DNA from: a virus
Virus record (IMG/VR): IMGVR_UViG_3300045988_129289
Length of the DNA stretch: 64,000 nucleotides
Strand: one strand, 5' to 3'
Positions 2 to 62,540 of the stretch are shown one piece after another. The first letter of the stretch is position 1. Each line of letters opens with the position of its first letter. The translations under genes were made by a program, and so were the position numbers. The notes under the pieces are model-generated. The model worked only from the letters and a program-made list of their open reading frames with translations. It did not search any database and was not told the DNA's origin.

Positions 2-1123
2 GATGCTAAAGAGCATGGAGCGCCAAAGAATGGATTGTGGGTATCAGAGAAAAAAGATATTGGGTTTATGAATGATAGACCAATATTAATATAGCTTCAA
101 TAGATTCTTAAGAAACCAATGGTATAGATTGGAGATATCCCTGCCCAGGGTAAAAATAAACTGCGCAACCATATACTTAGAGAAGCTGAATAGTCTGGAG
201 CAGATGCAGTTAAGTTTTAGGGAATTAAGGATAATAAAACTTCTAACCAGAATGTTACATTTATCTTTGATCCTGTTGCTTCTACCACAATTCCCCCGAA
301 AGAAATGAGAGCATTTAAGGAATAGATAACTAAGCTAACACCATAGTAGATAGGATAGGAAGCTAAGGAGGGTGTTAGAGATGTAATGATGTGGTATAGA
401 AGTCCACAGTGGGAAACTAGGGCGGTTTCACGCGGATTGACATAGGATGAAATAAAAGCCTTTCAGGACTTACAAGGAAAAGTTTTGTCTTAGAAACTCC
501 CTATGGATAATAGATTTGGACCGGTAAACATTATAGTAGAAGATATGGGTAAAGGTGTTTAGGGATACTCCCAATTCTTGCCCAAGAGTATACACACTAA
601 TCAATATCCATCTGAACATTTTGTAGCTATATCTAACTAGGCTTCTCATCCTTACTATACAGCAGTACATGAAGGAATGCATCATGGTACTTTTAATATT
701 GGTTCGACTGGGTGGACTGCACCTCAAATGACTTTATCTCCAATTGAATAGAGTGCCTTAGACAAAGTACTTAGGAATGCCGAAGCTCTTAATGCTAGAC
801 TAGAAATAGATCCTAATAAGTTTACTACTTTAATGAATAAACTACAAACTAAATATGGAATGTCTGAAGTGGAAGCTAGACATTGGATCGGGGATAGAGT
901 AAAGTATTGGCAGACTCCTCAAGAGTCAAGAGCCAGAGCAGGTGCGGTAAATTAGTACAAAAGAAATCACCCAAATGCATCTGAGGAAGAACTTACTCAA
1001 ATAGATAATGCTAGATAGATATTTACTAATGAATCTCTTAATAACTTATATGGAAAAACTATAGCCTTAGGAGCCCCAGTAGTAGGAGCATTGGCTTCCA
1101 ATCAACTAGGAAATGGAGAATGA
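2..1123 (+). CDS. 3' part of a large virion-associated protein with HExxH metallopeptidase motif; TAG-recoded (gene starts upstream of window)
   Basis: frame 2 open from window start to TGA at 1121 when TAG is sense; >20 in-frame TAG, no TAA/TGA; HEGMHH encoded at 668-685. Confidence 0.6.
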
Positions 1124-1405
1124 CTTCTCATCACTTATTAGAGATAACACCTATACGTTTGATTGCATTAAAATAATATTTGCACATAATACTTATTATA
1201 GTGAAAAAGTTATTACTAATAATTTTAAACAAGCTTTGATTCTCTTTAAAGCTTGTCCATGTTTGTTGCCCTCTTAGTATGCTTGCTTTTTCAAAGATGG
1301 CAAAGAAATAGCTCGGTGTACTATAGATTGGACTAATAAAGATGTAAAAGAATATTTAGATAATATTCCATATAAAATTGAGATTAATTTAAATGATTTA
1401 ATATA

Positions 1406-2392
1406 ATGGCTGAATTATTTACAACATTTGAATCAGTATCTCCACCAGATATAGTTACCCCAGATGTGCAATAGAATTACCAGGAAATATAGTTAATGTA
1501 GTAGCCTACTTAGGAAGTAGAAGACTCGAATATAGACTGGAGTTTCCTAGATGTACCTGAATAGGACATTCAGGAACCTACTTTTAATTATACTCCTTCT
1601 AAATCTGAGAATACCTCTTCTGCAGCTCAGAAAGTAATTAACTAGGCTAGATAGTTCTTAGGTGGAAAGTATAGTTGGGGAGGTTCTAGTCCAAGTTCTG
1701 GATTTGATTGTAGTGGACTTATAAAATATGTCTTTAATAGTGTAGGAATTAATCTTCCTAGGACTGCAGCTTAGCAGGGAAAAGTTGGACAAGAAATTAA
1801 TCTATAGTAGGCATAGCCTGGAGATGTAATCTGGTTTGGAAGTAAGAATAGTCCTAGTGGTTAGCATATAGGACTTATAAGTAGAATAGATAATGGATAG
1901 ATATATATTATAGATGCAGCTGGAAAGAAATTAGGAATAGTTGAAAGACTACTTCCGAATCTAAAAATTAAAAGTGTTAGAAGAATCCTAGGAACTATAA
2001 ACGATAGTCAATTTAATCAATACGCTTTAAACTTCTTTAAAAATAAAGGATTATCAGATGCTTAGGCTAGAGGAATAGTAGGAAATCTAATGTAGGAAAG
2101 CAGGGGAAAGCACACTGCAATAAATAAATCTAGTAAAGCCTTTGGGTTGGCACAATGGTTAGGTCCTCGTAAATAGAGGCTCATTCAAAAGTATGGAATG
2201 AATCCCACTGTATCATAGCAGTTAGAATTTATATGGGAAGAATTAAATTCTACAGAAAGTAAAGCTTTTTAGAAACTACTTAACACTAATACTATTTCTG
2301 ACGCCACTAAAGTATTTGCAAAGCACTTTGAGAGAGCTGGTAATAATGAGATGAATATGAATAAACGAATTAAATTCGCATATTAGACGTGA
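1406..2392 (+). CDS. peptidoglycan hydrolase: NlpC/P60 (C40) peptidase domain + lysozyme-like domain; TAG-recoded
   Basis: ATG 1406 to TGA 2390; translation with TAG=Q gives GFDCSGL...PGDVIWF...H(I)GL (NlpC/P60 Cys-His) then GNLMQESRG...AFGLAQW lysozyme-like motif; TAG aligns to conserved Q after LPRTAA. Confidence 0.7.
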
Positions 2393-2426
2393 GAATACCA
2401 TTATAACAATTAAAATTTTGTACAAT

Positions 2427-2876
2427 ATGTAGTTAGTTCCAAAAAGACAAATTGGAGGGAATCTTTATAAGATTGATAACACTATGCCCCAAATAACTCA
2501 AAGATATGTAGCTCTACTAAATAAAGGTATCCCAGCTTAGGCTGCTTTTGATACAGCCCATTTATCTCTAATAGAGGATGGAAGGCCTAATAAATTTTAT
2601 TCATTTGGTAAAAGAGCAACCAACTTGCAGGATTGGACTAAGAATGCATCGGATTCTTTGACTGTTGGGCGATATAAAAATTTATAGAATGTACAGAACT
2701 TTAATCAATTTAAGTAGAAATTAAAATAGAAAAGGTATAATAACAGACCTGCATTCTATAATATAGAAATGAACCGAGGAAGAAATAAAGATAAATAGAT
2801 TATTAATTAGTGGAATAAAGAATAGGGATTAAATCCAATAGCACAGATATATAATTATAATATTAATTAGGTATAA
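2427..2876 (+). CDS. hypothetical late protein, TAG-recoded
   Basis: open frame with ~14 in-frame TAG only, ends TAA 2874. Confidence 0.4.
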
Positions 2877-2901
2877 GAGCTATAATTATTCTTATAATAT
2901 T

Positions 2902-3123
2902 ATGAAAGAATTTCTTAGGTTGATGATTACTTCACATTCTGGCATTAGTAGCAAAAGAGTCTGTGGAGTAATTGGATTCCTTATTATTATTTTCGTATTA
3001 GTCTATTGTACAGTATCTTCTATTCAAGCCCCTCTAATGATAGAGCCTTTTATATATGCAGTATGTTTATTACTAGGAATAGATTCAGTAACTGGAATTT
3101 GGAAAGGTAAAATGAATGATTAA
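2902..3123 (+). CDS. small two-TM membrane protein, holin-like
   Basis: ORF track 73 aa, two hydrophobic helices, positioned between muralytic enzyme and next late gene; no TAG inside. Confidence 0.45.
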   Translation: MKEFLRLMITSHSGISSKRVCGVIGFLIIIFVLVYCTVSSIQAPLMIEPFIYAVCLLLGIDSVTGIWKGKMND

Positions 3124-3997
3124 GTTTTAGAGAGGTGGCATTGCAGTGTAGGATAATACTAGGGTTGTTAGAAAACAACCTCTAGCTTTTCGACTTACTA
3201 AAGAACAGTAGGCTAGAATTAAGTAGAGAAAATTATAGGAAGCTGCTAGAAGAAATCAAGCAGTAATCTATGATGCAGACAAAGCTAAATACTATTAGAA
3301 TATGTAGAACTTCTATAATAATAACTTCTTTGGATATGGAGTGTTTGGAAAGCAAACTCATTATGACCCTTCTAAAGAAGAGGATTAGAAGAAAATATAG
3401 TCTAATTTTAATTATGCTAAAGATAATGTAAAGAACATAGGAACTTCCCTTATAACTGTAGGACCTGCAAGTTCTTTTAAAGGTGTTTTGCCTTCTGTTT
3501 CCAGAAGAGTTACAGTAGGTAAGTTATCCGCCTTAACTCCTTATAAAATAGGATAGGGTTCAGAAGCCCTTGTAATAAGAAATTCTCCTACTACGGTAGG
3601 AAAGATAACTTAGGTTGGAAGTGGTGAAATGTTGAAAAGGAATGCAATTCCAAATTCCCTTCCTCTAAAGTTTGTGGGATATGTAAGAGATGGATCTAAA
3701 AGATTTCCAACTTTCATTTAGAAGAAAGTAAAAGTCCTTAGTGAAAAGACTTTTCCAAAGTATGTTGGTAAACTGGATAAAGCTATGTAGAAGAGTGGTT
3801 TTAGAAAAGTCAATGATCCAAATGTACAGTATAGAGCATATACCAATGGTACCGTAGTAGTTGATGATGTATCTCCTGGAAATGTAGGATTAACTTTCTT
3901 TAAAAAGCCTAAACTATTGGATTTTAATCTTCAAACTGTCCCAAGTTGGACTAGTTAGGGATTTACTCTTAAAAATGGAGGTAAATTTAAATCTTAA
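3116..3997 (+). CDS. hypothetical late protein, TAG-recoded
   Basis: ATG 3116 (overlaps holin-like stop), frame 2 open to TAA 3995 with ~15 in-frame TAG (checked at 3209, 3224, 3956). Confidence 0.5.
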
Positions 3998-4555: not shown

Positions 4556-4630
4556 TGCCCCATGGTGTAATGGTTAGCACAGCGGTCTCTAAAACCGCAC
4601 GTTTCAGTTCGAATCTGAATGGGGCGACCA
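4556..4630 (+). tRNA. amber suppressor tRNA, anticodon CUA (decodes UAG), Gln-like; CCA encoded
   Basis: cloverleaf: acceptor TGCCCCA/TGGGGCG (U1-G72), D GTGT-AATGGTTA-GCAC, anticodon stem GCGGT/ACCGC loop CTCTAAA (CTA at 4589-4591), T arm TTCAG-TTCGAAT-CTGAA, A73, CCA 4628-4630. Confidence 0.85.
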
Positions 4631-29893: not shown

Positions 29894-29899
29894 CAAAGT

Positions 29900-30481: not shown

Positions 30482-30557
30482 TCATAATCTGTATATCAGT
30501 AGTAGCACTATTCATTGTAGACACAATTTGTGACACTATTAAGGATTGTAAGAAAAA

Positions 30558-31079: not shown

Positions 31080-31097
31080 TTAATAAAAATTTTATAA

Positions 31098-32906
31098 ATG
31101 TTAACAGAAAGTTTAATTATTGCAGGCGCAGTAGTTGTGCTTGTAATCTTGACCCTCATCGGTCTCATGTCACGTTATCGTCGTTGTGCAAGTGATGAAA
31201 TCTTGGTAGTCTTTGGTAAGACTGGCAAGAAAGTTGGAATCAATCCAGCAACCGGCAAGAAGGAAACAACAATTCTTCCTTCTAAGATCATCCATGGCGG
31301 AGGTACCTTTGTATTCCCTGTAATCCAGGATTGGAAGAAGATGTCTCTGAAACCTATCCAGATTCAGACAGAGGTAGAGGGTGTGTCAAGTCAGATGATT
31401 AAGGTCAAGATTCCGGTTACCTTGACTACTGGAATTGGTACAACTGATGTACTCATGCAAAATGCTGCAAGTCGTTTCCTGACTGCTAAACCTGATGAGA
31501 TTTCTGCTCAAATTACCGATATTCTTATTGGTGAAATGCGTGCTTTGATGGCTACTATGACCATTGAAGAGATCAATGCTGACCGAATCAAGTTCCTTGG
31601 TAATGCTAAGGAGGATATCGAGACTGAGTTGAACAAGGTAGGTTTCAGTATTATTAACATTAACAATGCTGATATTACTGATGATGCTGACTATATCAAG
31701 AATCTCGGTAAGAAGGCAGCTACCAAGGCAAAGGCTCAGGCTGAGGCAGACATCGCTGAGGAGGAAAAGAAGGGTGACATTCAGATTGCTGAAACCAATA
31801 AGGAGAAAGCAATTGCCGTAGCTGCTGCAGAGAAGGATCAAGCTACTCAGGTAGCTCAGACTAAGCAGGAGCAGGAAGTAAAGGTTGCCGAGATCGAGAA
31901 GAACAAGGCAATTAGTCTTGCAGAGGCTGATAAGACTAAGGAGTCTGAGGTTGCTAATCAGCAGGCTGATAAGGAAGCTGCTACCGCTGCTGCACAGGCT
32001 CGTTCAGCTGCCGCTGTAGCAAAGTCTGAAGCAGATGCTCTTGCTGCACAGGCAGAGGCAGAGGCTGAGAAGAATATTCGTATGGCTAAGGCTGAACAGC
32101 AGCAGGAAGCCGAAACCAGAAAGGCTACTAATGAGCAGGAAGCTAAGGTAGCTGAGTATGATGCTGAAAAGCGTAAGCGTACAGCTGAGGCTAATAAGCA
32201 GGCAGGCGTAGCTGAGCAGACAGCAACTATCGAGGTTTCTAAGGCACAGGCTGAGGCTGCTAAGGCACAGGCTGAGGCAGTTCGCGTTGAGGGTGTATCT
32301 AAGGCTGAAGCTGAAGTGGCAATTGCTAAGAAGAATGCTGAAGCTAAGGAGGCACAGTTGAACGCTGAGTCCATTGTTCCTGCTCAGAAGAAGAAGGAAG
32401 CTGTAGTTATTGAGGCTGAGGCTGAGAAGCAGAAGAAGATTGTTGAGGCACAAGCTGAGGCTGAAGCAATTAAGCAGAAAGCTTTGGCAGAGGCTCAGGC
32501 AATCCAGGCTAAGGCAGAAGCTGAGGCAGAGGGTAACAAGAAGAAACTTCTTGCTGAGGCAGAAGGTAAGCGTGCCTCTTTGATGGCTGAGGCTGATAAG
32601 GTTCAGGCTATCGAGATGGCTCCGGCACTTGCAATTGAGAAGATGATTGAGACAGGTATGACTCCGGAGATGATTGTTCAGTACAAGACTGTTGATCAGC
32701 TTAAGGGTATCGCCGAAGCTCAGGCTGAGGTTTATGAGCATATCCATCTTGGTGAGGTTACTGTTTATGGTAACGAGAACACTGCTGGTAACTTCATGGC
32801 TTCAATGGCTGAGAATCTCAATCCAGCATTTGAACTTCTCAAGTCTATTCCTTTCAAGAAGACTCTCAATGCTATCGCAGGCAAGGACGAAGTCAAGAAG
32901 GATTAA
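31098..32906 (+). CDS. flotillin-like SPFH/band-7 protein with long Ala/Glu-rich coiled coil
   Basis: ORF track 602 aa; N-terminal TM, SPFH-like region, ~250 aa of AEAEA/KAQAEA repeats as in bacterial FloT/YqiK. Confidence 0.7.
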   Translation: MLTESLIIAGAVVVLVILTLIGLMSRYRRCASDEILVVFGKTGKKVGINPATGKKETTILPSKIIHGGGTFVFPVIQDWKKMSLKPIQIQTEVEGVSSQMIKVKIPVTLTTGIGTTDVLMQNAASRFLTAKPDEISAQITDILIGEMRALMATMTIEEINADRIKFLGNAKEDIETELNKVGFSIININNADITDDADYIKNLGKKAATKAKAQAEADIAEEEKKGDIQIAETNKEKAIAVAAAEKDQATQVAQTKQEQEVKVAEIEKNKAISLAEADKTKESEVANQQADKEAATAAAQARSAAAVAKSEADALAAQAEAEAEKNIRMAKAEQQQEAETRKATNEQEAKVAEYDAEKRKRTAEANKQAGVAEQTATIEVSKAQAEAAKAQAEAVRVEGVSKAEAEVAIAKKNAEAKEAQLNAESIVPAQKKKEAVVIEAEAEKQKKIVEAQAEAEAIKQKALAEAQAIQAKAEAEAEGNKKKLLAEAEGKRASLMAEADKVQAIEMAPALAIEKMIETGMTPEMIVQYKTVDQLKGIAEAQAEVYEHIHLGEVTVYGNENTAGNFMASMAENLNPAFELLKSIPFKKTLNAIAGKDEVKKD

Positions 32907-33006
32907 CCTTTGTTAATTTTGTAAATTAACTAAGAATTAGTATCTTTATAAGTCTACTTGATATGGGTATTAAATGTACTCTATTGAGTAGACTTTTTTA
33001 TCATTT

Positions 33007-33090
33007 GGAGGGATAGCACGTAATTGGAAGCGTCACAGTCTTCTAAACTGTTGCCATATGGCCTTTAGGGTTCGAATCCCTGTCCCTTCA
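33007..33090 (+). tRNA. tRNA with anticodon UCU (Arg AGA) but class II-like 14-nt extra arm and A73
   Basis: acceptor GGAGGGA/TCCCTTC, anticodon stem ACAGT/ACTGT loop CTTCTAA, extra arm TGCCATATGGCCTT (GCCAT/ATGGC hairpin), T arm TAGGG-TTCGAAT-CCCTG. Confidence 0.6.
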
Positions 33091-33155
33091 CATTGTTATT
33101 AATTTTTGATGGGCATTCTTCCCTTGTATGTTTAAAAAGAAATGATTTATGTATT

Positions 33156-33758
33156 ATGTAGAGCAAATGGTTTGAAGAAAAAGAAAATTTAGAGAATATG
33201 ATTCTCGTACAGAAAATGAGTTATGAAGACATAGGTAGACATTATGGTTGTAGTGGCTCAAATATTAAGAAAGTTGCTATTAGAATTGGCATTCAACTCC
33301 CTTAGAGAAGAAAACCAAAAGAAAGTGAAACTTTCAATAAGGGAACTGGACAGAAGTATTACTGTCTGAACTGTGGAAAGTTGTTAAATCAAGACAATGG
33401 TGGTAGCTACAAGCATAAATTTTGTGATAACAAATGCTAGAGGGAATATCAGCACAAAATTGGGTATCAGAAAATACTAGATGGAGATTCATCTATAATG
33501 AGGGCTAATTACTCTCCACATGCTTTTAAGGACGATATACTTCAGGAACAAAATGGAGTATGTGCTATATGTGGTTCAAAGCCTGAGTGGAATGGCAAAC
33601 CTCTAGTATTTATTTTGGATCATATAGATGGTCATGCATCTAATAATATTAGAACTAATCTTAGATGTATATGTCCAAACTGTGATTCTCAATTAGACAC
33701 CTACAAATCTAAAAACAAATGCGGAGAAAGGAGTTACTATCGCTATCATAAATACTAG
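33156..33758 (+). CDS. HNH homing endonuclease with N-terminal HTH, TAG-recoded (three in-frame TAG)
   Basis: in-frame TAG at 33159, 33303, 33438; C-terminal LDHIDGHASNN...NLRCICPNCD HNH motif (ORF track 33498-33758 is its tail); HTH MSYEDIGRHYGCSGSNIKKVAIRIG. Confidence 0.6.
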
Positions 33759-33784
33759 GATATAACTAAGCAAAAAGATAATGA

Positions 33785-34072
33785 ATGAATGAATTAGTGT
33801 TTAAAGAACTAAATCTCAATTTAGACATAAAGGTATGTACTATAGGGGGAGAAGAAATCAACCTTACAAGGAATGAATTTAATCTTCTTGAATTTCTTAT
33901 AAAGAACAAGAACAAAATACATTCTAGACAGGAAATCCTTAATAATGTATGGGATTCTAAAGTTTCTTTAAGAACTGTAGATACTACTATGTCGAGATTA
34001 CGTAAAAAAATGAAAAATTTAGGCAAGTATTTAGTAACTAGATCAGGATTTGGATACGGTATTTTGGAATGA
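33785..34072 (+). CDS. stand-alone OmpR/PhoB-type winged-helix DNA-binding protein
   Basis: LTRNEFNLLEFLIKNKNKIHSRQEILNNVW...TVDTTMSRLRKKM...YLVTRSGFGYGI matches trans_reg_C. Confidence 0.6.
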   Translation: MNELVFKELNLNLDIKVCTIGGEEINLTRNEFNLLEFLIKNKNKIHSRQEILNNVWDSKVSLRTVDTTMSRLRKKMKNLGKYLVTRSGFGYGILE

Positions 34073-34320: not shown

Positions 34321-34857
34321 ATGAAAAAGAATGTTTTTCAAAGGCTGTGGGAATGGATTTTAAGTTTATTTCCTAAGCAAGAGATAGAGATTCCTGAACC
34401 AAAAAAGGAAGAACCTATCCCCGAGGAACCAGAAGAAGTTCCTCTAGCAACCGAACCCGAACCCGAACCCGAACCCGAACCCGAACCCGAGGAAGAGGAA
34501 GAGGAAGAGGAAGAGGAAGAGGAAGAGGAAGAGGAAGAGGAAGAGGAAGAGGGTATTGTATCTCCTTGGGGTATAAATCCTGTTAAAGCAGAATTATCTG
34601 ATATTAGAGGTTCAAGTAAGCTTAGAGGGTTTACAAGAGTTGATAATATTAGTGGTTATAGGGTAATTCATGAACACTTCCATACTATTAATGATATGCT
34701 TGGGTGTTTTAGAAGGAGAGGAAACAATGAGGTGATGAGAGAAACTCATGAGTCACAGAGCCCAGAAAGAGATCACTCTTGGTATGGTACAAATTCTTAT
34801 GAGGAAGCCGTAAGGCTTTTCAGAGAAGGATATACAGAGATATCCCAATCTATTTGA
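34321..34857 (+). CDS. acidic repeat protein ((EP)n and (EE)n tracts)
   Basis: ORF track 178 aa; GAACCC x5 and GAAGAG repeats 34453-34550. Confidence 0.5.
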   Translation: MKKNVFQRLWEWILSLFPKQEIEIPEPKKEEPIPEEPEEVPLATEPEPEPEPEPEPEEEEEEEEEEEEEEEEEEEEEGIVSPWGINPVKAELSDIRGSSKLRGFTRVDNISGYRVIHEHFHTINDMLGCFRRRGNNEVMRETHESQSPERDHSWYGTNSYEEAVRLFREGYTEISQSI

Positions 34858-35543
34858 ATGGTCCTGCTGGAACTGGAAAGAATGTTATTTGCAAACAAGT
34901 AGCAGAATCGTTAGGACTTCCATTCTATTTCACCAATGCAGTAACACAGGAATACCAGTTAACTGGTTTCATAGATGGAAATGGAGTGTATCACGATACA
35001 GAATTTCATAAAGCATTTACCACTGGTGGTGTATTTTTCTTGGATGAACTTGATGCCTCAATTCCAGAGGTTCTTGTAATTCTAAACGCTGCAATTGCTA
35101 ACAGGTATTTTGATTTCCCAACTGGAAAGGTTACCGCTTATAAGAATTTCAGGTTAATTGCCGCGGGAAATACAACTGGAACCGGATCAGATAGTGTTTA
35201 TTCAGGAAGATACTGTCTGGATGGAGCATCTCTGGATAGATTCGCTCAAATTCAAATTCCGTATTCGGAGAAAATTGAGAAGGCAGTTACCATGGATGAT
35301 GAAAAACTTATCCAGTTCTGTCATGCTTATAGAAAAGCTGTGAAGGACTCTGGAGTCAATTCTATATTTTCATATAGAGGTCTTTCAAATATAACCTCTA
35401 TGAAAGAAGATTTGCCTCTTGAGGATCTAATGAGATCATGTCTCACTAAAGGAATGACTAAGGATGATCTCATAGTTATTAAGAAATCCATTAGTATGGA
35501 TGATTCGGAAAATCCATATCTTAAGGCATTTACTAACTTATAA
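34854..35543 (+). CDS. AAA_5/MoxR-like P-loop ATPase (TTG start, Walker A at residue 4; possibly fused to upstream ORF by frameshift)
   Basis: NGPAGTGKN Walker A, FFLDELD Walker B; upstream frame-0 sequence RRIYRDIPIYL is open but lacks a start codon. Confidence 0.55.
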   Translation: MNGPAGTGKNVICKQVAESLGLPFYFTNAVTQEYQLTGFIDGNGVYHDTEFHKAFTTGGVFFLDELDASIPEVLVILNAAIANRYFDFPTGKVTAYKNFRLIAAGNTTGTGSDSVYSGRYCLDGASLDRFAQIQIPYSEKIEKAVTMDDEKLIQFCHAYRKAVKDSGVNSIFSYRGLSNITSMKEDLPLEDLMRSCLTKGMTKDDLIVIKKSISMDDSENPYLKAFTNL

Positions 35544-35643
35544 AAATGAAAAGATTTATAATGTTTTTGCCTTGAAATGGGTACTCTCGTCTTTTCGGTT
35601 ATTTCACTGTGTTATATATTTTAATTAATTTAGGAAAAATTTT

Positions 35644-36645
35644 ATGAAGAAATTTATTTTCATCATGAGTTTGCTGTTCACTCTGTGTAGTTTTACCTAT
35701 GCGCAAACAGCGTATGAAGAATCTAAAATCCTTGATAACACTTCTATTAGTGTTGTAGGTGGAGTAACTACTCCTCTGGACTTTAACTCAGTATTTCCTG
35801 TAAATGGAGTTGCTGGTATTAAGTTGCAGAAGAACCTTACTCCTGTATTTGGGTTTAACGTTGAAGGACTTGCCTCCTTTGGCGATAATCACTATGGTAG
35901 TGCTTCTACTGTAGTAAGGTCTATTAATACTGGATTGAATGGAGTTATTAACTTCTCTAACCTGCTGTGTGGATATAATGGAACCCCTCGTAAGTTCGAA
36001 GTAAGTACTGAGACTGGTATTGGCTGGATGCATAGTTGGACGGGACACTGTAACTATCTTACATCTAAAACTGGAATGGTATTATCATTCAATCTAGGTA
36101 AGGAGAGAGCTCATTCAATCATAGTTAATCCTGCAGTATACTGGAATCTGAATAGGACAGATCATGTAGAGTTCAATAAAAATTATGCTCAGCTTGGTGT
36201 CTTGATTGGATGGGTATACCACTTTAAGACTTCTAATGGTACAAGAAGTTTTAAGACGTATGATATTACATCAATGAACAACGAAATTAATTCTCTCAAG
36301 AAGGATTTGGCAAAGAAACCTACAGAAATTGTAAAGGAGGTCGTTAAGACCGAAGTTGTTACTAATACGATTGGTAACACAGTGATTTTCTTTGCACAAA
36401 ATTCTGCAAAACTTACTGGAACCGCAATGTCTGAATTATCTAAGATTCCATCTGGTTCTAAGGTAAGCATTATTGGTTCTGCATCTCCAGAAGGTTCCTC
36501 TAATTACAATCGGAAGTTGTCAGAGAAACGTGCAGAAGCTGTTTCCAAATTCTTAACCGAAAATGGTGTAGTTGTAGAGAATTGTATTGGAACTGGTGTT
36601 ACTGACACTACTAGTGGTCGTGTAGCAATAGTTACTATTAAGTAA
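35644..36645 (+). CDS. OmpA-family outer-membrane protein (signal peptide, beta-barrel region, OmpA C-terminal domain)
   Basis: MKKFIFIMSLLFTLCSFTYAQ; C-terminal VIFFAQNSAKLT...IIGSASPEGSSNYNRKLSEKRAEAV. Confidence 0.65.
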   Translation: MKKFIFIMSLLFTLCSFTYAQTAYEESKILDNTSISVVGGVTTPLDFNSVFPVNGVAGIKLQKNLTPVFGFNVEGLASFGDNHYGSASTVVRSINTGLNGVINFSNLLCGYNGTPRKFEVSTETGIGWMHSWTGHCNYLTSKTGMVLSFNLGKERAHSIIVNPAVYWNLNRTDHVEFNKNYAQLGVLIGWVYHFKTSNGTRSFKTYDITSMNNEINSLKKDLAKKPTEIVKEVVKTEVVTNTIGNTVIFFAQNSAKLTGTAMSELSKIPSGSKVSIIGSASPEGSSNYNRKLSEKRAEAVSKFLTENGVVVENCIGTGVTDTTSGRVAIVTIK

Positions 36646-36824
36646 AACTTTAGGTAACAAACATCTCCCGCTGACTCGTTTAAATATCGTAAATTACCTT
36701 AAAATTAACCATTTGGGTTAGAAAGAGAAAGAACGTACGATAAGTGCTGGGACAATGGAATGTTATAATAAAACCAGTGAAAATAACCTAAACTCATTTC
36801 TAGTTGGAGTATAACTAACTAGAT

Positions 36825-36915
36825 TACCTCCTTATATCAGTGGTAGAAGTTTAGCAAGGTCTATATTGCATAGATAGTAGTGAGACTGTCAGTGGTTCGA
36901 ATCCACTAGGAGGTA
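36825..36915 (+). tRNA. tRNA-like element (~91 nt) with ambiguous central region
   Basis: acceptor TACCTCC/GGAGGTA perfect, T arm AGTGG-TTCGAAT-CCACT, but D and anticodon arms cannot be assigned canonically. Confidence 0.3.
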
Positions 36916-36952
36916 CTACCTGTTCCTGTAAACATAAAAAAAAAAGAAGAAA

Positions 36953-38227
36953 ATGACTGATTTTAATATGAGTAAATTGTGGCTCGGTAAAGATGGATAT
37001 TACCGAGATGTAAACGGCAACAAGATTGCCTAGAAAGGGTAGCCCATTTCTGGTGCTGCTTGGAGATATTTAGCAGGAAAATATGGAAGGGAAGTTGCCA
37101 ATAGAACCTCAATGAATACTAGAAATGGAAACATATTCTAGAATGGACGTTGGCGTTTTAATGATGTCAAATCTTCTAAGCAAGGGAAAACTGCTACATG
37201 GGATGAAGCAGCTTCTAGAATTGAGGAGAATGCTAAGGCCGCTGGAGCTAGAAAAACAGCAACTGGCTATACACAGAGAAACCCTTTCAATAATAAAGAT
37301 ACCTATCTAAATCAAGATACAAAGAATAAAGCCATGAAGGCTTATAGAGCACGACAGAAATCATAGACTTCTGCTGAGAATCCTGATGAATTTAGTTGGA
37401 GTGATCTAAATCCTTTCAAGAAAGGTGCTTGGGAAGGCAACTGGGATAGTGCAGCAAAAAACTTCATTGATTCCTTTAAATCAATTCCCGATATTTGGAG
37501 AAAGGGGTATGCTAGAAGAGGCGAAATGTATAACAATGTTCCTCAGAGTGTATTTGAACCAAAACGAAACACAGGTGTTTTGGCACGATTCAATGATACT
37601 CTTGGAGATATTTCTAGAACTGGAAATGCTGTTCTGGGAGGAACTATTGGAACTGCCTTGCAGCTCTTACTACCATAGAAGGTTGAGAGAGAAGCTAGCA
37701 ATCTAGGACAATATCTAGATCTAGGTAAAGATGTTAACTCTGTCAGAAGTTATTTAACTCCAGGAGAAGAAGGAATATTGCCAGATGATCCTAGGAATAA
37801 GGGATTTGCTGATTAGAATTTTGCCTGGACTGGGCTAGACGAATAGTAGAGAAGAAATATTAACGATGATGCCAACTTTGCTATGGCTATCCTTGGAACT
37901 AAAGGTATGAAGGGTGGAGTCTCTAGACTTAAGACTGGAGTCTCTGGAATGGTAAAAGATGGAGTAGGTACTACGCTAAAGAATAATTGGAAACCTATTA
38001 TGTCTCATACACCAGGTGCCGCTAACCTTTATTAGGCTGGAAGTGCACTTAATTCTGTAAGAAGGGCATTAGCCCCTAAGAGACTAGGAGGAGCAGAAGG
38101 AATTGGCAGTAGATCTGCAAATGTAGGAAAAGCTGCATTTCAGGGGCTTATGGCTTCAGATCCTACTATGGCACTATACCCTTATGCACATAGCAGTTAT
38201 ATGGTAAATTTATCTAATAATAATTAA
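36953..38227 (+). CDS. hypothetical virion protein, TAG-recoded
   Basis: ATG 36953, frame open to TAA 38225 with ~12 in-frame TAG. Confidence 0.55.
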
Positions 38228-38229
38228 AT

Positions 38230-39240
38230 ATGAGTATTAAAAAGAAGGCACAATATTTAGGTGAGGGAGTAAATTGGTTAAAAGGTCATGGTTAGATGAT
38301 ACCAGATTACTTCGGAAACCTGATGAGACGAATTGGAGGAGGTGAGAGAGCTGTAGTTAGAGCTAGGCAAGCTTCTCCAGAATTAATTGCATCTAGAAAT
38401 AGTTAGAGAGGGGCTGAAATGAGTCATAATCTTGCAGCTCAAAGATATAAAGAAGCTTAGCAAGCAGAAAGTAAATTATTAGACAATACTAAAAACTGGA
38501 AGTAGCCTAATAGTAAAAGAAACGTAAAGAGAGTAAATGATGCTATGCGAAAAACAGATGAAGCTGAGAGAAATGCAATAACTGCATCATAGAGAAGTAG
38601 AGAAGCCTAGGAAGCTTTCAATAATACTAAGAGACAGGTTACTAATGATGCCCTAAAACAAGTTAGGAATAAGGGTATTAAAAGAACTCTTAAAACCGCT
38701 GGACTTGTAGGTGGTCTTGGTACTGGAGCTTATCTAGTTATTCCGAGAAATTCTAAATCACCTAGTGCTGCAGAGGAGACTCCATAGCAATATATGTATA
38801 GTCCAAATAATGGTTGGCAGGAGTGGAATCAGGAAACTGGTTAGTATGAAAATCAACAGCAAGGATTCGGAATAGATAGGTATGGAAATACTAACTACTA
38901 CGATGGAACAAATTGGCTAACTCCTGATCAGTATCTACAAGGCAGTAATGGTTACATATATAATAAACAAACTGGACAAATTATAGGTACGGCTGATGAC
39001 ACTATGGAAGCGTATAATAATGGCTATGACAATGTGTTTGATTATCGCGCTGCTAAAGCTGGTTACAATAGCCCAGAAGCTGTCAAGCAACTTCAAGAGA
39101 AACTTGGAATAAATGCTGATGGTAAGTGGGGACAGCAAACTTAGGATGCTTTCAATAAGACTGTTTCAAATTGGGCATAGCAATATGATCCTAACAGTTT
39201 ATTCTCTATATACTAGAGAAAGATGCAATTCGGATACTAA
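38230..39240 (+). CDS. hypothetical virion protein with C-terminal PG_binding_1-like peptidoglycan-binding repeat, TAG-recoded
   Basis: ATG 38230 to TAA 39238; ~17 in-frame TAG; GYNSPEAVKQLQEKLGINADGKWGQQTQDAFNK. Confidence 0.55.
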
Positions 39241-39253
39241 TGAAAAAAAAAAA

Positions 39254-40456
39254 ATGACACAAATAAATAAAGCACAGAGAGGAGCAATTCTCTAGTTTGG
39301 TAAGTTAGTAAATAAGGCTAAGTTAGCTTCAAATAGATTAGGGAGGATCTTTACGGGTGAAGCTGCAGCTGAAAAGAAATTAAACAAGCTTGCAAAGTAG
39401 AAAATATTGTAGTAGACAGGTAGTTGGAGACCTACATAGAAGATGAGAGAAATCAACTTAGAAGGGAAGAAGCAGTCCATCAGGGACGCAAAAGCCATGA
39501 GGAGTGCAGCTTCTAAGGCTGAACTCAAATGGATGTAGGAAAACTCTGATAAAGCTACTAAGGTTTACAAGAGTGGCGCTAGAGAATTTGGAGGGGATGC
39601 TAATAGACTCACTTTATAGAAAGTAAGGTAGGATGCAATGAAACCCTTCCTTGCGGATGAGGCTAAAAGAATACGTAGAAATAGGGCTGTAGCAACTGTC
39701 TTGCCTGTAGGTTTAGGCATTCCTGCCTACAACATACTAACTGGGAAAATATATGATAATGTATTTCCCTATGGATATTAGGATAAAAAGGCAAGTGATA
39801 AAGACAAGGGAGAAAGTTGGGTTGCGCGCATAAAAAAGTTTGGACCAGCTGCCTTTGGTATAAAATCAGATGCTAGAAAGCATTTTGACTAGATTGCTGC
39901 AGCAGATTTATCTGATCTAAAATAGAGGAAAGAAGCTGAAAGAATTTACTAGGGAGACTCCATTTTGCAGTACCCAATGGGTGGTGCTTCTTTGGAATAT
40001 GTATAGAATCGATTTAGAAATAGAACCGATTTCAATGACTTATATCTAGGAAGACCGCAAACATATAATACACTGGTTCCAAATACTGAGTATTAGTCAG
40101 TAAACTCTCATGAAAACCCTAAGATAGTTACTTATACTTTTGCAGACCCAATAATTAGGAATATGTTAAGAAGTCAAGGAAGGGATTTCAATCTCAAATA
40201 GAATGATATTGACCCTGATAAAGGCTATGGAGCAAGAGCAGTATCTGACCATAATGGGATTTTCGGAGATTTCGGAATAGTTAAAAATTAGTAGAATGGA
40301 GCTGGTAGATATAAAGAAGATTGGGATTTTCCATTATCTGGATTAACTCATAAGCTGGGATTAACTAGCTAGGTTATAATAGCTGATACTATACCTGGTA
40401 ATTAGCCAAGATAGAGTTATAGATTTGGAGAACATCACAATAGATCATAGATGTAA
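39254..40456 (+). CDS. hypothetical virion protein, TAG-recoded
   Basis: ATG 39254 to TAA 40454; >20 in-frame TAG (checked at 39293, 40448). Confidence 0.55.
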
Positions 40457-40471
40457 AAAAAAAAAATTAAT

Positions 40472-41272
40472 ATGAAGAAGATAATTAGATCAATTGGAAT
40501 GGCATTTATAGTATATTTGTCAATTTCCTTTATAGGGGCTTGCTTTGAGTTGTCTCTATTTATTTTTAGAGAGACCTTCTTAGATGAATTAATCTATTCA
40601 TTTGGAATCTCTATTGGACTACCAGATCTTATAGGGGAATATATTACTCCTAAATCAATTCCATGGGTAGAGGATATTGAAACTTCTATAGTATTTGGTA
40701 TTCCTTTGATAGGATCTCTGATATATCTTATTATGTCTTTGAGAAGAAAAAGTTTATTGATATTGCTATGTCTATTTGCATTACCAATATCAGCAAAGGA
40801 ACCTATTAAAGCGATCCCAAAGGGTGGTAGATATGCTATCCTTGTGGATTTCTCAAAGCCCTCTGGAGAAGATAGATTTAAGATATATGATTGTAAATCC
40901 CATTGTATCATATATTCTAGCGTGGTTCAGCATGGCAATGGGGGAGGAAGTACGAAGGAGAAGCCAGTATTTAGTAATAGGATAGGAAGTAACTGTTCTA
41001 GTCTCGGTTTATATAAAATCACTGGTTTTGGAAGAATGAATAGCTTTCCTATTAACTGCTTTAGACTTAAAGGGCTAAGCAGCACTAATTCTAATGCAGA
41101 AAAGAGAGGCATTGTTATTCATCCCACACTTAGTAGTTCTCTTCCATTTAAAATGCGTTACCTCCCATTGAGTGATGAAAGTCATGGTTGTTTTGGAGTA
41201 AGCTTTGAAACAATGAGGGTAATACGTAAATTGTATGGTAAAGGCGTAATATATTTATATGCTTTCCATTAA
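40472..41272 (+). CDS. L,D-transpeptidase-like (YkuD-type) protein with N-terminal TM helices
   Basis: ORF track 266 aa; GIVIHP...SHGCFGVS resembles YkuD catalytic HG...SHGC motif. Confidence 0.5.
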   Translation: MKKIIRSIGMAFIVYLSISFIGACFELSLFIFRETFLDELIYSFGISIGLPDLIGEYITPKSIPWVEDIETSIVFGIPLIGSLIYLIMSLRRKSLLILLCLFALPISAKEPIKAIPKGGRYAILVDFSKPSGEDRFKIYDCKSHCIIYSSVVQHGNGGGSTKEKPVFSNRIGSNCSSLGLYKITGFGRMNSFPINCFRLKGLSSTNSNAEKRGIVIHPTLSSSLPFKMRYLPLSDESHGCFGVSFETMRVIRKLYGKGVIYLYAFH

Positions 41273-41273
41273 C

Positions 41274-43437: not shown

Positions 43438-44988
43438 ATGGAAATTATTAATGCAACTGATGGCTATAAACTTGGCCATCATCGTATGTACCCAGAGGGT
43501 ACACAAATGGTTTATAGTAACTGGACTCCAAGAAGTTGCCGTTACTTTCCAGAAGCCACAGAAGGTTCTGTAGTATTTGGTATTCAGTACTTTGTAAAGA
43601 AGTATCTAATTGAGGAGTTTGGTAAGTGGTTTGCTCTTCCTAAGGAAGAGGCTATTAAACAGTTTGCTTATCGTGTAGGTAACTTTGTAGACCTTAATCA
43701 GGTTGGAACAAAGCATATTGAGGAACTTTATGATTTAGGATATCTTCCTATTGAAATTAAAGCTCTTCCTGAGGGTTCTATCTGTCCTATAAGGGTACCT
43801 ATGATGACTATTAAGAATACTCTTCCGGACTTCTTCTGGTTGACTAACTATTTGGAGACTCTGATTAGCTGTACTCTATGGCTTCCTTGTACTTCTGCAA
43901 CAAGTGCTCGTCTTTATAAGAAGAGACTTATGGAGCATGCTATAAAGACTAGATTCCCAGAAGATGTAAATCTAGGGTTCTCTTGTCATGATTTTTCAAT
44001 GAGAGGTATGGCTGGACTTGATGCTGCTATCATCTCCGGTATGGCTCACATGACTTCATTCTGTGGCAGTGAGACAATTCCTGCTATTGCGGCAATAGAG
44101 CATTATTACAATGCAGATGTTACTAAAGAACTCGTAGCTGCAACTGTTCCAGCAACTGAGCACTCTGTGATGTGCGCAGGGGGTGAGGATGATGAAATTG
44201 AGACATATCGTCGCCTTATTAATGAACTATATCCAACGGGTATTATTTCAATAGTATCTGATACTTGGGATTTTTGGCAGGTAATTGAGAAGTTCTTACC
44301 TAAGCTTAAAACAGACATTATGAAGCGTAATGGTCGAGTAGTAATTCGTCCTGATAGTGGTGACCCAGTTGATATTATTTGTGGTCTTCGTACAAATCCT
44401 CATTACCACACTGCCATGAAGGAAGGTAAATACTACTGTGATTTTGACCCATTTATGGATGATGATGAAAGTCATTATGTAGAAGTATCTGAAGGTCAGT
44501 ACTATGGAGCATATTATATGCTAGGTAAAATCTTTGGATGGAATACTACAGTAAATGATTATCGTTATCCAAGTACCAAGGTTGGATTGCTCTATGGAGA
44601 TTCTATTACTCTGGAGCGTCAGCGTGATATCTATGCTCGATTGGAGAGTGCTCATATGGCAGCTTGTAATCTTGTTCTTGGTATTGGATCTTACACTTAC
44701 CAATTTAAATCTCGTGATTCTTTGGGATTTGCAATTAAAGCAACTGCTTGTGTAATTAATGGAGAACTTAAAGAAATCTTTAAGCATCCAAAGACTGATG
44801 ATGGAACAAAGAACTCCCTTAAAGGTCTTATAAGAGTTGAGGAGGAAAATGGTAAGTATGTTGCTTATGATCAGCAAGATGCAGCTCATGAAATGGCAGG
44901 CTGTTTGGAGCCAGTCTTTGTAAACGGAAAATTGGTAAGAGATACTAGTCTTTCTGAAATTCGTGAACGTATAAGCTCAACATTATGA
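43438..44988 (+). CDS. nadV: nicotinamide phosphoribosyltransferase (NAMPT/NadV)
   Basis: 516 aa; N-terminal NATDGYKLGHHRMYPEGTQMVYSNWTPRS typical of NAMPT. Confidence 0.75.
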   Translation: MEIINATDGYKLGHHRMYPEGTQMVYSNWTPRSCRYFPEATEGSVVFGIQYFVKKYLIEEFGKWFALPKEEAIKQFAYRVGNFVDLNQVGTKHIEELYDLGYLPIEIKALPEGSICPIRVPMMTIKNTLPDFFWLTNYLETLISCTLWLPCTSATSARLYKKRLMEHAIKTRFPEDVNLGFSCHDFSMRGMAGLDAAIISGMAHMTSFCGSETIPAIAAIEHYYNADVTKELVAATVPATEHSVMCAGGEDDEIETYRRLINELYPTGIISIVSDTWDFWQVIEKFLPKLKTDIMKRNGRVVIRPDSGDPVDIICGLRTNPHYHTAMKEGKYYCDFDPFMDDDESHYVEVSEGQYYGAYYMLGKIFGWNTTVNDYRYPSTKVGLLYGDSITLERQRDIYARLESAHMAACNLVLGIGSYTYQFKSRDSLGFAIKATACVINGELKEIFKHPKTDDGTKNSLKGLIRVEEENGKYVAYDQQDAAHEMAGCLEPVFVNGKLVRDTSLSEIRERISSTL

Positions 44989-45416
44989 AGCACCCATTCA
45001 ATCAGCAATCCTGCTTAGATAGGCTCAAAGGGGAGTATGATAAATACGGTAAGCTGATTGTTGCTTTCGACTTTGACAACACTATATATGACTTCCATAA
45101 TAATGGAGGTGATTATAGTGAAGTCATTGAACTTTTAAAAGAATGCATTAAACTAGAGTTTGATCTCATTCTGTTTACCGTGGATGAGGATCCTGATAAG
45201 GTATCTGAGAAGGTACGATGGCTGGTATCTAATGATTTATGGAACTACAAGAGTTCTCATTTCTTTGTTAATACTAGTCCAATATTTAGCGGATCCAGAA
45301 AACCCTATTATAATATTCTGCTTGATGATAGAGCGGGATTAGAAGAAAGTTATAACATTTTAAAACAAGTTGTAGATTATGCAAATTCTAAATTTAGTAA
45401 ATTTGGAGAAGAGTGA
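44985..45416 (+). CDS. small HAD-family phosphatase (DxDxT)
   Basis: LIVAFDFDNTIYDF motif I; sits between nadV and prs. Confidence 0.55.
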   Translation: MKHPFNQQSCLDRLKGEYDKYGKLIVAFDFDNTIYDFHNNGGDYSEVIELLKECIKLEFDLILFTVDEDPDKVSEKVRWLVSNDLWNYKSSHFFVNTSPIFSGSRKPYYNILLDDRAGLEESYNILKQVVDYANSKFSKFGEE

Positions 45417-62212: not shown

Positions 62213-62225
62213 AAATTAAATTATT

Positions 62226-62540
62226 ATGGTAAAGAAAGTAAGAAGGGCAATAAAAAATAAGTATGCCTTTGGTGTATATAAACCAAACAAAAATTGTAAG
62301 CCAGTTACCTATAATGGTACTGAGTATTTGTCTAAAGCACAGTGTATGGCTCTTGAAGGAATTACCCGTAAAGAGCTAGATGAATACTTAAATGGAGGTT
62401 TAGGTGAAATTAACGAGGCAATTGATGTAGCAATTGATGCTCAAGAGGAACATCCAGCAGAAGGACCTGAAGAACCCTTAGAAGGACCATGGGGTCCAGA
62501 TAAAGCTCCTGGCGATATGAACTTGGATGATATACTTTGA
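62226..62540 (+). CDS. acidic hypothetical protein
   Basis: ORF track 104 aa. Confidence 0.5.
   Translation: MVKKVRRAIKNKYAFGVYKPNKNCKPVTYNGTEYLSKAQCMALEGITRKELDEYLNGGLGEINEAIDVAIDAQEEHPAEGPEEPLEGPWGPDKAPGDMNLDDIL

Follow-up and report, generated by a model that had tools for sequence, protein, structure and literature searches.

Three TAG-recoded genes of a crAss-like gut phage form a putative accessory island with exchangeable C-terminal domains

Three consecutive genes (g1, g2, and g3) in the 64,000 nucleotides of viral DNA analyzed in this study, referred to as the window, are genuine protein-coding genes in genetic code 15. They constitute a 3.5-kb island, and the TAG-free genes that surround it span at least 57 kb (Table 1). 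Comparisons with related phages suggest that g1–g3 are modular, with conserved N-terminal parts and exchanged C-terminal domains, and that the island is accessory, hypervariable, and rapidly swapped. We tentatively propose, at slightly less than an even chance, that the island is a suppressor-dependent, late, and envelope-directed accessory cassette whose products are likely packaged or ejected cargo and whose partner gene encodes a cognate modulator.

Table 1. Features of the island, its flanks, and the other recoded block in the window.
Feature	Coordinates	Strand	Characteristics
Other recoded block	68..3997	+	five genes with 9–20 TAG each; includes an NlpC/P60 + Phage_lysozyme2 protein (1406–2392) and an HExxH protein
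Canonical amber-suppressor tRNA	4556..4630	+	anticodon CUA; ARAGORN; Rfam tRNA 59.1 bits; clean cloverleaf
OmpA-family protein, TAG-free left flank	35644..36645	+	signal peptide; Pfam OmpA E = 9e-10
Conserved hairpin CTAGTT...AACTAG	36800..36822	+	directly 5' of the tRNA-like element
tRNA-like element	36826..36916	+	acceptor stem, perfect T-arm, irregular anticodon arm; 36 nt upstream of g1
g1, 424 aa, code 15	36953..38227	+	conserved alpha/beta N-terminal domain (~1–140), then helical region with Gly-rich hydrophobic segment
g2, 336 aa, code 15	38230..39240	+	charged helical N-part, Gly-rich hydrophobic segment (~164–181), Tyr/Asn/Gly-rich region, PG_binding_1-like C-terminal motif
g3, 400 aa, code 15	39254..40456	+	conserved helical N-module (1 to ~144), hydrophobic helix (145–163), swappable C-terminal domain (type A here)
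Partner gene, TAG-free	40472..41272	+	N-terminal multi-TM module fused to YkuD_2 L,D-transpeptidase-fold domain; Pfam YkuD_2 E = 5e-26

Reading Frames and Genomic Context

All three genes start with ATG, end with TAA, and possess no internal TAA or TGA. Their in-frame TAG codons number 9 in g1, 11 in g2, and 21 in g3; the original prediction was right about the TAA ends, but its counts of 12 to more than 20 TAGs per gene were not reproduced. It had also considered that other frames might be equally open or that translations with table 15 might have no detectable homologs. The five remaining frames of each gene contain 13–53 stops, with all three kinds present, and full-length homologues, which are not translatable under table 11, were found in gut phage contigs of 160–180 kb. 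Off-frame TAA and TGA together amount to ~7% per codon in the region of g1–g3, and the chance of 1,160 consecutive codons free of both, by our own arithmetic on the stop counts, is ~0.93^1160, or ~1e-37. TAG is not depleted in frame, where its density is 3.5% (41/1160) compared with 2.8% off frame. Thus, TAG behaves as a sense codon. Moreover, the start codons of g1–g3 match the conserved N-termini in relatives. The dN/dS values calculated across the TAGs were 0.05–0.3 against closer relatives, with values up to 0.57 for the most diverged relative (0.15–0.32 for g1, 0.11–0.57 for g2, and 0.05–0.17 for the N-module of g3). Purifying selection acts on the read-through frame across TAG codons.

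As had been predicted, the three genes are hidden from standard ORF calling, in which the ORFs of this 3.5 kb under table 11 are at most 93 amino acid residues long. Standard gene callers would therefore show a 3.5-kb gene desert at g1–g3, which gives the finding its value for annotation. The surrounding genes either shun TAG entirely or use it as a TAA-backed stop, with several TAG-free genes ending on TAG followed by a back-up TAA. The seven recoded genes compared contain 100 TAGs in 2,328 codons, whereas 30 long genes contain 0 in 8,860 codons. The TAG-free genes restart 16 nt past the last stop of the island on the same strand and continue through to the window end. The recoded blocks do not bound a 33-kb standard-code region, as the original prediction held; instead, the 3.5-kb island has TAG-free genes continuing on its far side.

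The neighborhood of the island consists of auxiliary and replication genes and is outside the structural module. Genes for OmpA, YkuD_2, and GH25 proteins, identified with Pfam, flank the island or its counterparts; the OmpA flank is swapped for DUF7192 and AAA_5 genes in some relatives. In relatives, a few kb separate the counterpart of the other recoded block of the window from a large terminase gene that is TAG-recoded as well. Scans for sigma-70 promoters and terminators were not informative, with counts that did not exceed those expected from shuffling.

Phage Lineage

The terminase of the relatives is ~28% identical to crAss-like terminases, and the lineage possesses group I introns, a LAGLIDADG-split terminase, and 22 tRNAs. 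The introns, split terminase, tRNA load, and size of 165–182 kb match the Zeta group (PMC7886860). The terminase match places the phage, with a genome of ~170 kb, in a deep crAss-like (Zeta-like) gut lineage. Searches of 50,697 GenBank phages with g1 and g3 by tblastn identified nothing, and the sole match of 20 kb by megablast was an 80-nt tRNA stretch. Among 1.84 billion cluster representatives, 35 represented the family of recoded genes. The recoded genes form an unannotated and clade-restricted family.

Decoding of TAG

The TAG codons account for 57% of the Gln codons in the recoded genes. In alignment columns, TAG was matched by Gln 25 times (CAA 15, CAG 10), Lys 16 times, Asn 13 times, Glu 9 times, and Trp 0 times; because all of the homologues come from one clade, this is a weaker test than one with standard-code orthologues. 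TAG appears to be read as glutamine (code 15), an identity drawn solely from the alignments. The tRNA at 4556–4630 is predicted to be able to decode the in-frame TAGs. It shares a nearly identical anticodon arm with phage tRNA-Trp (71% identity overall), and its acceptor end and D-arm resemble those of phage tRNA-Gln.

It is very improbable that TAG specifies a residue other than Gln, whether Trp, inserted by this Trp-like suppressor, or another residue, inserted by the tRNA-like element 5' of g1. The similarity of the anticodon arm to that of tRNA-Trp would speak for such decoding, as would the CUA anticodon that ARAGORN calls for the tRNA-like element in three relatives. Against it, none of the alignment columns match Trp. 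In addition, the amber suppressors derived from E. coli tRNA-Trp (su7) are charged with Gln. The tRNA-like element argues against it as well: the ARAGORN call on it is odd, its loop varies from 6 to 8 nt, and the anticodon called in it changes from relative to relative (CUA in three; ct, gtc, ag, ata, and tt otherwise), with CUA missing in the relative L014. No Rfam tRNA match was found for the element at E ≤ 10 or for its copies in relatives at E ≤ 1.

The element was also considered as a dedicated second suppressor and was rejected in that role, as it fails the Rfam tRNA model and its loop length and anticodon vary among relatives. It is probably not a decoding tRNA. Its acceptor pair 2–71 covaries among relatives, and the element is missing from the relative L010. 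The adjacent hairpin shows a compensatory change to CCAGTT...AACTGG in two relatives (L005 and L013).

Properties of g1, g2, and g3

A total of 64 g1 homologues were identified, of which 26 were full length. The AlphaFold2 model of g1 had a pLDDT of ~90 over residues 1–140, and no fold match for g1 was found among PDB chains or BFVD models. The g3 model, with a pLDDT of 45.6, was unusable, and nothing meaningful was found with the g3 family profile in the PDB. The C-terminal part of g2 matched Pfam PG_binding_1 (PF01471) with an E-value of 2.5e-4 and 21.6 bits, below the cut-off of 23, at profile positions 32–56 of 57 only. Ten of 15 diverse family members show this sub-threshold match, and the motif LQxxLGxxxDGKWGxxTxxA, of the DG-x-(F/W)G-x-x-T-x-x-A type, is invariant or nearly so in 15 members. 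A g2-like protein of a distant phage (L015, 8925–10001) also retains it. The PG_binding_1-like repeat predicted in g2 is a recurrent resemblance, but its score is below the Pfam gathering threshold and only part of the domain is covered; no PG-binding structure was found when the g2 family profile was searched against the PDB.

Searches with g1–g3 against PHROG, Pfam structural families, PDB chains, and BFVD models gave no match, and their family profiles aligned to the cargo protein gp45 of crAss001 with hhalign probabilities of 0.1–0.5%. The earlier assignment of g1–g3 to virion (tail or muzzle) genes found no backing in these comparisons. Moreover, the relatives hold 1 to 4 genes of the g1–g3 type, and an accessory island of this kind does not resemble the core module of a tail or muzzle. 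When g1–g3 and 17 relatives or variants were scanned against PHROG and Pfam, only the weak PG_binding matches and one TseH match were obtained. The latter, a TseH-like (NlpC/P60) domain, is in the distant family member P0265, which is followed by a signal-peptide protein. Genes for SLT and Peptidase_C1 proteins adjoin another distant member, P0264. In all-against-all BLAST within the window, the island proteins had no paralogues among the other window proteins. A shared N-terminal QxGG motif was considered as a processing or packaging signal and was dropped because it was not enriched relative to TAG-free proteins.

An envelope theme runs through the PG_binding_1 match of the g2 family, the TseH-like and SLT domains in or near distant members, and the OmpA, YkuD_2, and GH25 flanks.

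The three proteins might instead form an essential ejectosome, a core trans-envelope channel of the virion comparable to T7 gp14–16, P22 gp7/16/20, or crAss001 gp45/46. Three consecutive late-type genes, each encoding a helical N-part followed by one hydrophobic helix as in gp45, would be in line with it, as would the absence of a gp46 homologue from Zeta-group phages (PMC10172136) and the PG-binding and hydrolase domains in the family. Such a role is nevertheless highly doubtful: the island of L010 contains a 301-aa g1 variant alone, with neither g2 nor g3, so that these proteins seem dispensable and an essential role in ejection unlikely.

Exchange of C-Terminal Domains and Partner Genes

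The nucleotide similarity to the relative L003 ends at 39687, inside g3. The cassette boundaries are at 39687 and 41272/41273, and the segment 39688–41272, which comprises the C-terminal domain of g3 and the next gene, is replaced exactly as a unit. Across 12 loci, a small sample of related loci, five types of g3 C-terminus (A, A', B, C, and D) were identified, each with its own partner. For instance, the relative L013 shows the same pairing of g3 C-terminal type and YkuD_2 partner as the window. Partners of a given type retain 87% identity between diverged genomes, and the start of the partner gene overlaps the stop of g3. All partners are TAG-free membrane or exported proteins, of which two are wall enzymes (YkuD_2 and GH25). 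The downstream layout differs in type A' genomes; the N-module of the window's partner resembles an 89-aa TM protein that follows the type A' g3 in L006 (E = 0.002). The type C g3 C-terminus was considered CHAP-like from motifs only, and no library confirmed it.

Such co-replacement of a C-terminal domain and the next gene behind a constant N-module, together with the conservation of partners in diverged genomes and the overlap of their starts with the g3 stop, is what a polymorphic toxin/immunity system for competition or superinfection exclusion would produce, with g3 C-termini as toxins and the downstream TAG-free proteins as immunity proteins. A partner in standard code would be made ahead of the toxin, and the distant member with the T6SS-effector-like TseH domain and its following signal-peptide protein also fits. 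We consider this explanation quite unlikely, as no delivery or secretion route is evident besides the virion or lysis, YkuD_2 and GH25 enzymes are among the partners, type A' genomes are laid out differently downstream, and neither the Pfam scan nor the PDB profile search found a known toxin domain in the window's g3.

The wall enzymes next to the island also raise the question of lysis. If the island were part of a lysis module that waits for the suppressor, the TAG-free wall enzymes (the YkuD_2 protein of the window and, in relatives, a GH25 lipoprotein or a CHAP-like protein) would serve as endolysins exported by Sec, and g1–g3 would be late-made triggers or accessories similar to holins, spanins, or tethers. 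Lysis genes are the most strongly recoded ones in published work, in which recoded TM proteins are found in lysis cassettes (10.1101/2021.08.26.457843), and g3 possesses the highest TAG density of the island (21 in 400 codons). In addition, small holin-like ORFs with 2–3 TM segments follow family members in L006, L014, and L016, and g2 bears the PG-binding-like motif. However, the proteins are 336–424 amino acid residues long with long charged N-terminal regions, unlike known holins and spanins, and PHROG and Pfam identified no holin, endolysin, or spanin match for g1–g3, the wall-enzyme domains being confined to the adjacent TAG-free genes. Furthermore, a single gene is left in L010 although lysis functions are essential, and standard code is used for the putative endolysins, the reverse of the published pattern. 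Involvement in lysis is thus a real but rather unlikely possibility.

Proposed Role of the Island

Full-length g1–g3 can be translated solely while an amber suppressor is active, and the phage carries one. Given this dependence, they would appear late, after the suppressor builds up. Control would be exerted at translation, gene by gene, despite the TAG-free genes 16 nt downstream. The original prediction envisaged a temporal (late) partition of the genome. Late, suppressor-dependent translation fits the published idea. However, on one and the same strand, 16 nt separate TAG-free genes from heavily recoded genes, which argues for translational gating rather than partition by genome region. While it is expected biology that late genes of a crAss-like gut phage show TAG-to-Gln recoding, recoding here works at the scale of single genes.

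The products of g1–g3 would be directed at the cell envelope, each with a conserved N-module, one hydrophobic or Gly-rich helix, and an exchangeable C-terminal domain. They would most likely be accessory cargo, packaged or ejected, with the wall and membrane as its targets. The position of the island outside the structural module and its lack of gp45 or PHROG structural homology count against the cargo reading. The C-terminal domain of g3 would move as a unit with its cognate TAG-free partner, which would be an immunity-like modulator made earlier in standard code. The YkuD_2 and GH25 partners, as wall enzymes, are not typical immunity proteins.

It is also conceivable, though unlikely, that the pairs represent a polymorphic effector system split over two codes, in which codon reassignment would impose an order of "antidote before poison." The attacking C-terminal domains in code 15 would be made after the decoding switch and may travel as virion cargo; the protective or partner protein in standard code would hence be made first. 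The island shows the recombination architecture of polymorphic effectors, with the C-terminal domain tied to its own exported or membrane partner in standard code. If this pairing is one of effector and modulator, it would provide a concrete reason why these genes, and not their neighbors, are recoded.

Comparison With Known Systems

Code-15 recoding of late genes is known in crAss-like and other large gut phages (Ivanova 2014; PMC7886860; 10.1101/2021.08.26.457843; PMC9523058). Similar to these phages, the in-frame TAGs of the window are limited to a subset of genes, a tRNA(CUA) is phage-encoded, and early, replication, and auxiliary genes are TAG-free. The TAG followed by a back-up TAA at some gene ends is also found in Zeta crAss-like phages (PMC12386605). 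Different from the code-15 phages described, the unit identified here is 3.5 kb, accessory, and hypervariable, with TAG-free genes 16 nt away, and its proteins are in no annotated structural or lysis family.

In the code change module of Jade phage (Borges 2021), a recoded lysis cassette is immediately preceded by a suppressor tRNA, an aaRS, and a release factor. Similarly, a tRNA-shaped gene is directly upstream of the recoded block in this study. Different from the Jade-phage module, this element, with its loop of 6–8 nt, fails tRNA covariance models and is accompanied by neither aaRS nor release factor, and the credible suppressor is 32 kb away.

The crAss001 protein gp45 has a predicted TM helix at 136–158 (PMC10172136), to which the hydrophobic helix of g3 is analogous in position. 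Like crAss001 gp45/gp46 and podovirus ejectosomes, the island comprises consecutive late genes for helical proteins with one predicted membrane helix ~140–160 residues from the N-terminus. Another shared feature is the presence of wall-acting domains in the family; in the T7 ejectosome, gp16 carries a transglycosylase domain. Different from these systems, the island is outside the structural module, is variable and dispensable in gene content, and has no detected sequence or profile homology to them.

Polymorphic toxin/immunity systems include the MuF-toxins of temperate phages, CdiA-CT/CdiI, and T6SS wall-hydrolase effectors with periplasmic immunity proteins. Different from such cassettes, effector and partner would be in different genetic codes here, some partners are enzymes, and neither delivery machinery nor, in the window's g3, a recognized toxin domain was identified. 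Similar to them, an N-terminal carrier module is kept and the C-terminal domain recombines along with the next gene, the partners possess signal peptides or TM anchors, and a TseH-like domain is found in one distant member.

Reading Frames and Coding Evidence

The original prediction was of three consecutive TAG-containing, TAA-terminated genes (g1, g2, and g3), and frame-by-frame stop counts showed their coordinates to be correct. Each gene starts with ATG and ends with TAA, and TAG is the sole internal stop codon in frame, occurring 9, 11, and 21 times in g1, g2, and g3, respectively. The predicted 12 to more than 20 TAGs per gene hold for g3 and were slightly overstated for g1 and g2. The remaining frames of both strands are not equally open, as all of them contain many stops of all three kinds. 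Given that TAA plus TGA occur off frame at ~7% per codon in this region, a run of 1,160 codons free of both would arise by chance with a probability of ~1e-37. TAG frequencies in frame (3.5%) and off frame (2.8%) were alike. The 3.5-kb region contains no standard-code ORF longer than 93 amino acid residues, so the genes are indeed invisible to standard ORF calling.

Searches with translations in which TAG was read as Gln (table 15) identified 64, 91, and 90 homologs of g1, g2, and g3, respectively, which excludes that such translations are without homologs. All were unannotated and located on gut metagenome contigs of 165–182 kb. Their DNA also has in-frame stops under the standard code (table 11), as the fetched genes failed to give the query protein. 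Protein identities to three IMG/VR contigs were 85–95%. In codon alignments with five relatives, dN/dS ranged from 0.05 to 0.3 against closer relatives and reached 0.57 against the most diverged one, and many TAGs were conserved in place. Variable TAG columns contained Gln 25 times (CAA 15, CAG 10), Lys 16, Asn 13, Glu 9, and Trp 0 times. The anticodon arm of the canonical tRNA(CUA) resembles that of phage tRNA-Trp, and its acceptor end and D-arm resemble those of phage tRNA-Gln. The alignments favor Gln as the amino acid at TAG. It is very likely that g1–g3 are genuine genes written in code 15, on a phage that has its own suppressor tRNA.

Features of the window and of related loci (L002–L023, loci of relatives)
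Feature	Position or loci	Description
g1	36953–38227 (+)	
g2	38230–39240 (+)	
g3	39254–40456 (+)	
First recoded block	68–3997	Five heavily recoded genes
Canonical tRNA, anticodon CUA	4556–4630	ARAGORN; Rfam, 59 bits; well-formed cloverleaf
Group I intron	22095–22346	Rfam RF00028, 87 bits; related introns in L002, L004
Standard-code auxiliary genes	24000–33000 and 43438–46188	Amidoligase/GATase/Peptidase_C26-type cluster, Band_7/flotillin-like 602-aa protein, NAMPT, PRPP synthase
Hairpin	36800–36822	5' of tRNA-like element; conserved, compensatory change in relatives
tRNA-like element	36826–36916 (+)	91 nt, 36 nt upstream of g1; 7-bp acceptor stem, perfect T-arm, irregular anticodon arm
Conserved CCTGTTCC box	Within 36800–36927	Just upstream of g1
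One recoded gene	L010	301-aa g1 variant, Gly-zipper C-terminus
Two recoded genes	L006, L014	
Three recoded genes	Window, L003, L013, L022, L023	
Four recoded genes	L004, L005, L011	
g3 type A	Window, L013	Partner: multi-TM module fused to YkuD_2 (window 40472–41272)
g3 type A'	L006, L014	Partner: 86–89 aa TM protein resembling type A partner N-module (E = 0.002)
g3 type B	L002, L003, L022	Partner: 165-aa protein, start overlaps g3 stop
g3 type C	L004, L005, L011	207-aa recoded protein plus GH25 lipoprotein
g3 type D	L023	Partner: 197-aa protein

Use of TAG Across the Window

Nearly all genes of the window are on the plus strand. Seven heavily recoded genes, located in the first block and in the g1–g3 block, contain 100 TAGs in 2,328 codons, where TAG makes up 57% of the Gln codons. 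Thirty long genes contain none in 8,860 codons, compared with an off-frame TAG rate of 2.25% per codon. The g1–g3 block had been regarded as the far edge of a 33-kb standard-code region. Because TAG-free genes resume 16 nt past 40456 and run to the window end, however, it is a three-gene island, surrounded by genes that are essentially TAG-free over at least 57 kb. Several otherwise TAG-free genes (29900–30487, 56032–57054, 18126–18407, and 60665–62260) have a TAG 1–15 codons ahead of TAA or TGA, which matches an arrangement known from Zeta crAss-like phages (PMC12386605), in which a TAG stop is backed up by another stop. These TAGs are probably stops early in infection, with the second stop as back-up while the suppressor is active.

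Among the products of the first recoded block are an HExxH protein and one with NlpC/P60 plus Phage_lysozyme2 domains, and a 518-aa recoded protein nearby carries repeated K-rich C-x-x-G-G units. Several recoded proteins (2427–2876, 3116–3997, and in relatives) start with or contain a short, basic Q-x-G-G motif, with an amphipathic helix after it; the significance of the motif is doubtful, as a crude regular expression found no enrichment in recoded versus TAG-free proteins. At 32996–33788, an 85-nt tRNA-Arg(UCU) with an insertion precedes an HNH-like ORF with 4 TAGs (33156–33788). The whole segment is missing from L003 and L004 and therefore probably arose by insertion of a mobile endonuclease, recoded as well.

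The tRNA-Like Element Upstream of g1

The initial parallel for the tRNA-like element was the code-change module of Jade phage. In three relatives its counterpart is 80 nt long and called tRNA(CUA) by ARAGORN, with an 11-nt indel between relatives. A dedicated suppressor of the Jade-phage style was nevertheless rejected: the Rfam tRNA model missed the element even at E ≤ 10, and its anticodon loop varies (6–8 nt). The ARAGORN anticodons are inconsistent among relatives (CUA in three, then ct, gtc, ag, ata, and tt). The diverged L014 copy lacks CUA, and L010 lacks the element altogether. Compensatory changes in the acceptor stem and the 5' hairpin suggest that an RNA structure is conserved here, probably for transcript processing and not for decoding.

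Variability of the Island and Exchange of g3 Domains

To the left, the island is bordered by a conserved Band_7/Trans_reg_C region; its right border is formed by a conserved 290-aa gene, tRNA-Trp, RNase H, and NAMPT. The number of recoded genes between these flanks varies from one to four. In L002, a 589-nt deletion (window 38773–39362) joins the N-terminal part of g2 in frame to g3, forming a 488-aa ORF with 15 TAGs (11278–12744). The immediate left neighbor is either OmpA-like or DUF7192 plus AAA_5. A 1.2-kb segment (34338–35560) is unique to the window relative to the IMG/VR relatives L001–L004, and the OmpA-like gene starts directly downstream of it, at 35644. N-terminal stretches of ~125 residues in g1 and ~145 in g3 are conserved, and the C-terminal parts are of several unrelated types.

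The flanks of L003 are 94% identical to the window, but nucleotide similarity ends at 39687, which is g3 codon ~145 at the beginning of the hydrophobic helix, and returns at 41273, one base past the stop of the following gene. The two breaks indicate that the C-terminal domain of g3 is swapped together with the next gene, as one cassette (39688–41272). Such joint replacement with the next TAG-free gene was found between near-identical genomes (versus L003, L004, L022, and L023). Across 12 loci, each of five g3 C-terminal types has its own TAG-free partner bearing a signal peptide or TM anchor; the type B partners of L003 and L022 are 87% identical. Thus, the island is accessory and modular, with domain-partner linkage. 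A toxin-immunity system for competition or exclusion is rather improbable. An essential ejectosome is very unlikely, and L010, where a single gene is left of the island, speaks against any essential role.

Possible Functions of the g1–g3 Proteins

No PHROG matches were found for g1, g2, or g3, and the only Pfam matches were sub-threshold ones to PG_binding_1 and PG_binding_3 at the g2 C-terminus. The predicted PG_binding_1-like part of g2 is plausible, given that 10 of 15 diverse family members show the match and that an LQxxLGxxxDGKWGxxTxxA motif is invariant or nearly so; the match spans only half the domain. When all 1.84 billion representatives were scanned with HMMER, g1 had just 35 relatives. 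One of these, a 706-aa protein of L015, combines the g1 C-terminal module with a TseH-like NlpC/P60 domain, and another, a 769-aa protein of L016, adjoins SLT and Peptidase_C1 genes. TAG recoding applies to all of them. The gene after that of the L015 protein encodes a 141-aa product with a signal peptide.

The PG-binding-like motif, the hydrolase domains found elsewhere in the family, and the wall-related neighbors suggest that the g1–g3 proteins act on the envelope. A lysis-module role is unlikely; the lysis, ejectosome, and toxin-immunity explanations overlap one another. In all three proteins, a charged helical N-terminal part precedes a single helix that is hydrophobic or Gly-rich, located at 145–163 in g3. 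The arrangement recalls the crAss001 cargo protein gp45, in which a TM helix is predicted at 136–158 (PMC10172136), although profile comparison of the g1–g3 families with gp45 was negative. Of the proposed late virion block, the recoded late-type genes stand, and "virion" is without a PHROG match or gp45 similarity to back it. Full-length translation of g1–g3 would depend on the suppressor and would therefore be late. We tentatively propose, at somewhat below even chances for the whole package, that the island proteins are accessory effectors aimed at the envelope, that they may be delivered as cargo of the virion, and that their cognate partner is produced in the standard code.

Phage Lineage and Comparison With Known Phages

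The window encodes 22 tRNAs, replication helicases, and exonucleases; its auxiliary genes comprise, among others, an amidoligase cluster, NAMPT, and PRPP synthase. An abiF RNA motif match (RF03085; 50 bits, gathering score 37) lies within the tRNA array at 14958–14995. At 16262–18183, a gene for a Ro60/TROVE-like RNA-binding protein (phrog_850) is directly followed by tRNA-Thr(UGU) (18111–18183), which was found by Rfam and missed by ARAGORN. In relatives, a TAG-recoded large terminase is located a few kb upstream of the counterpart of the first block, divergently oriented (L017/L018, 1–10000), and is interrupted by a LAGLIDADG gene in one of them. This terminase hits crAss-like terminases at ~28% identity and scores best against human-gut phage contigs that are unannotated.

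Late-gene recoding, its spread across several modules, and suppressor tRNAs have been published for such phages (10.1101/2021.08.26.457843). The recoding phenomenon itself is already established. The added interest is modest and lies in codes alternating gene by gene and in the effector-partner cassette architecture. Judged from its sequence, the phage is provisionally placed in the Zeta group of crAss-like phages described previously (PMC7886860), with which it shares genome size, intron density, and recoding.
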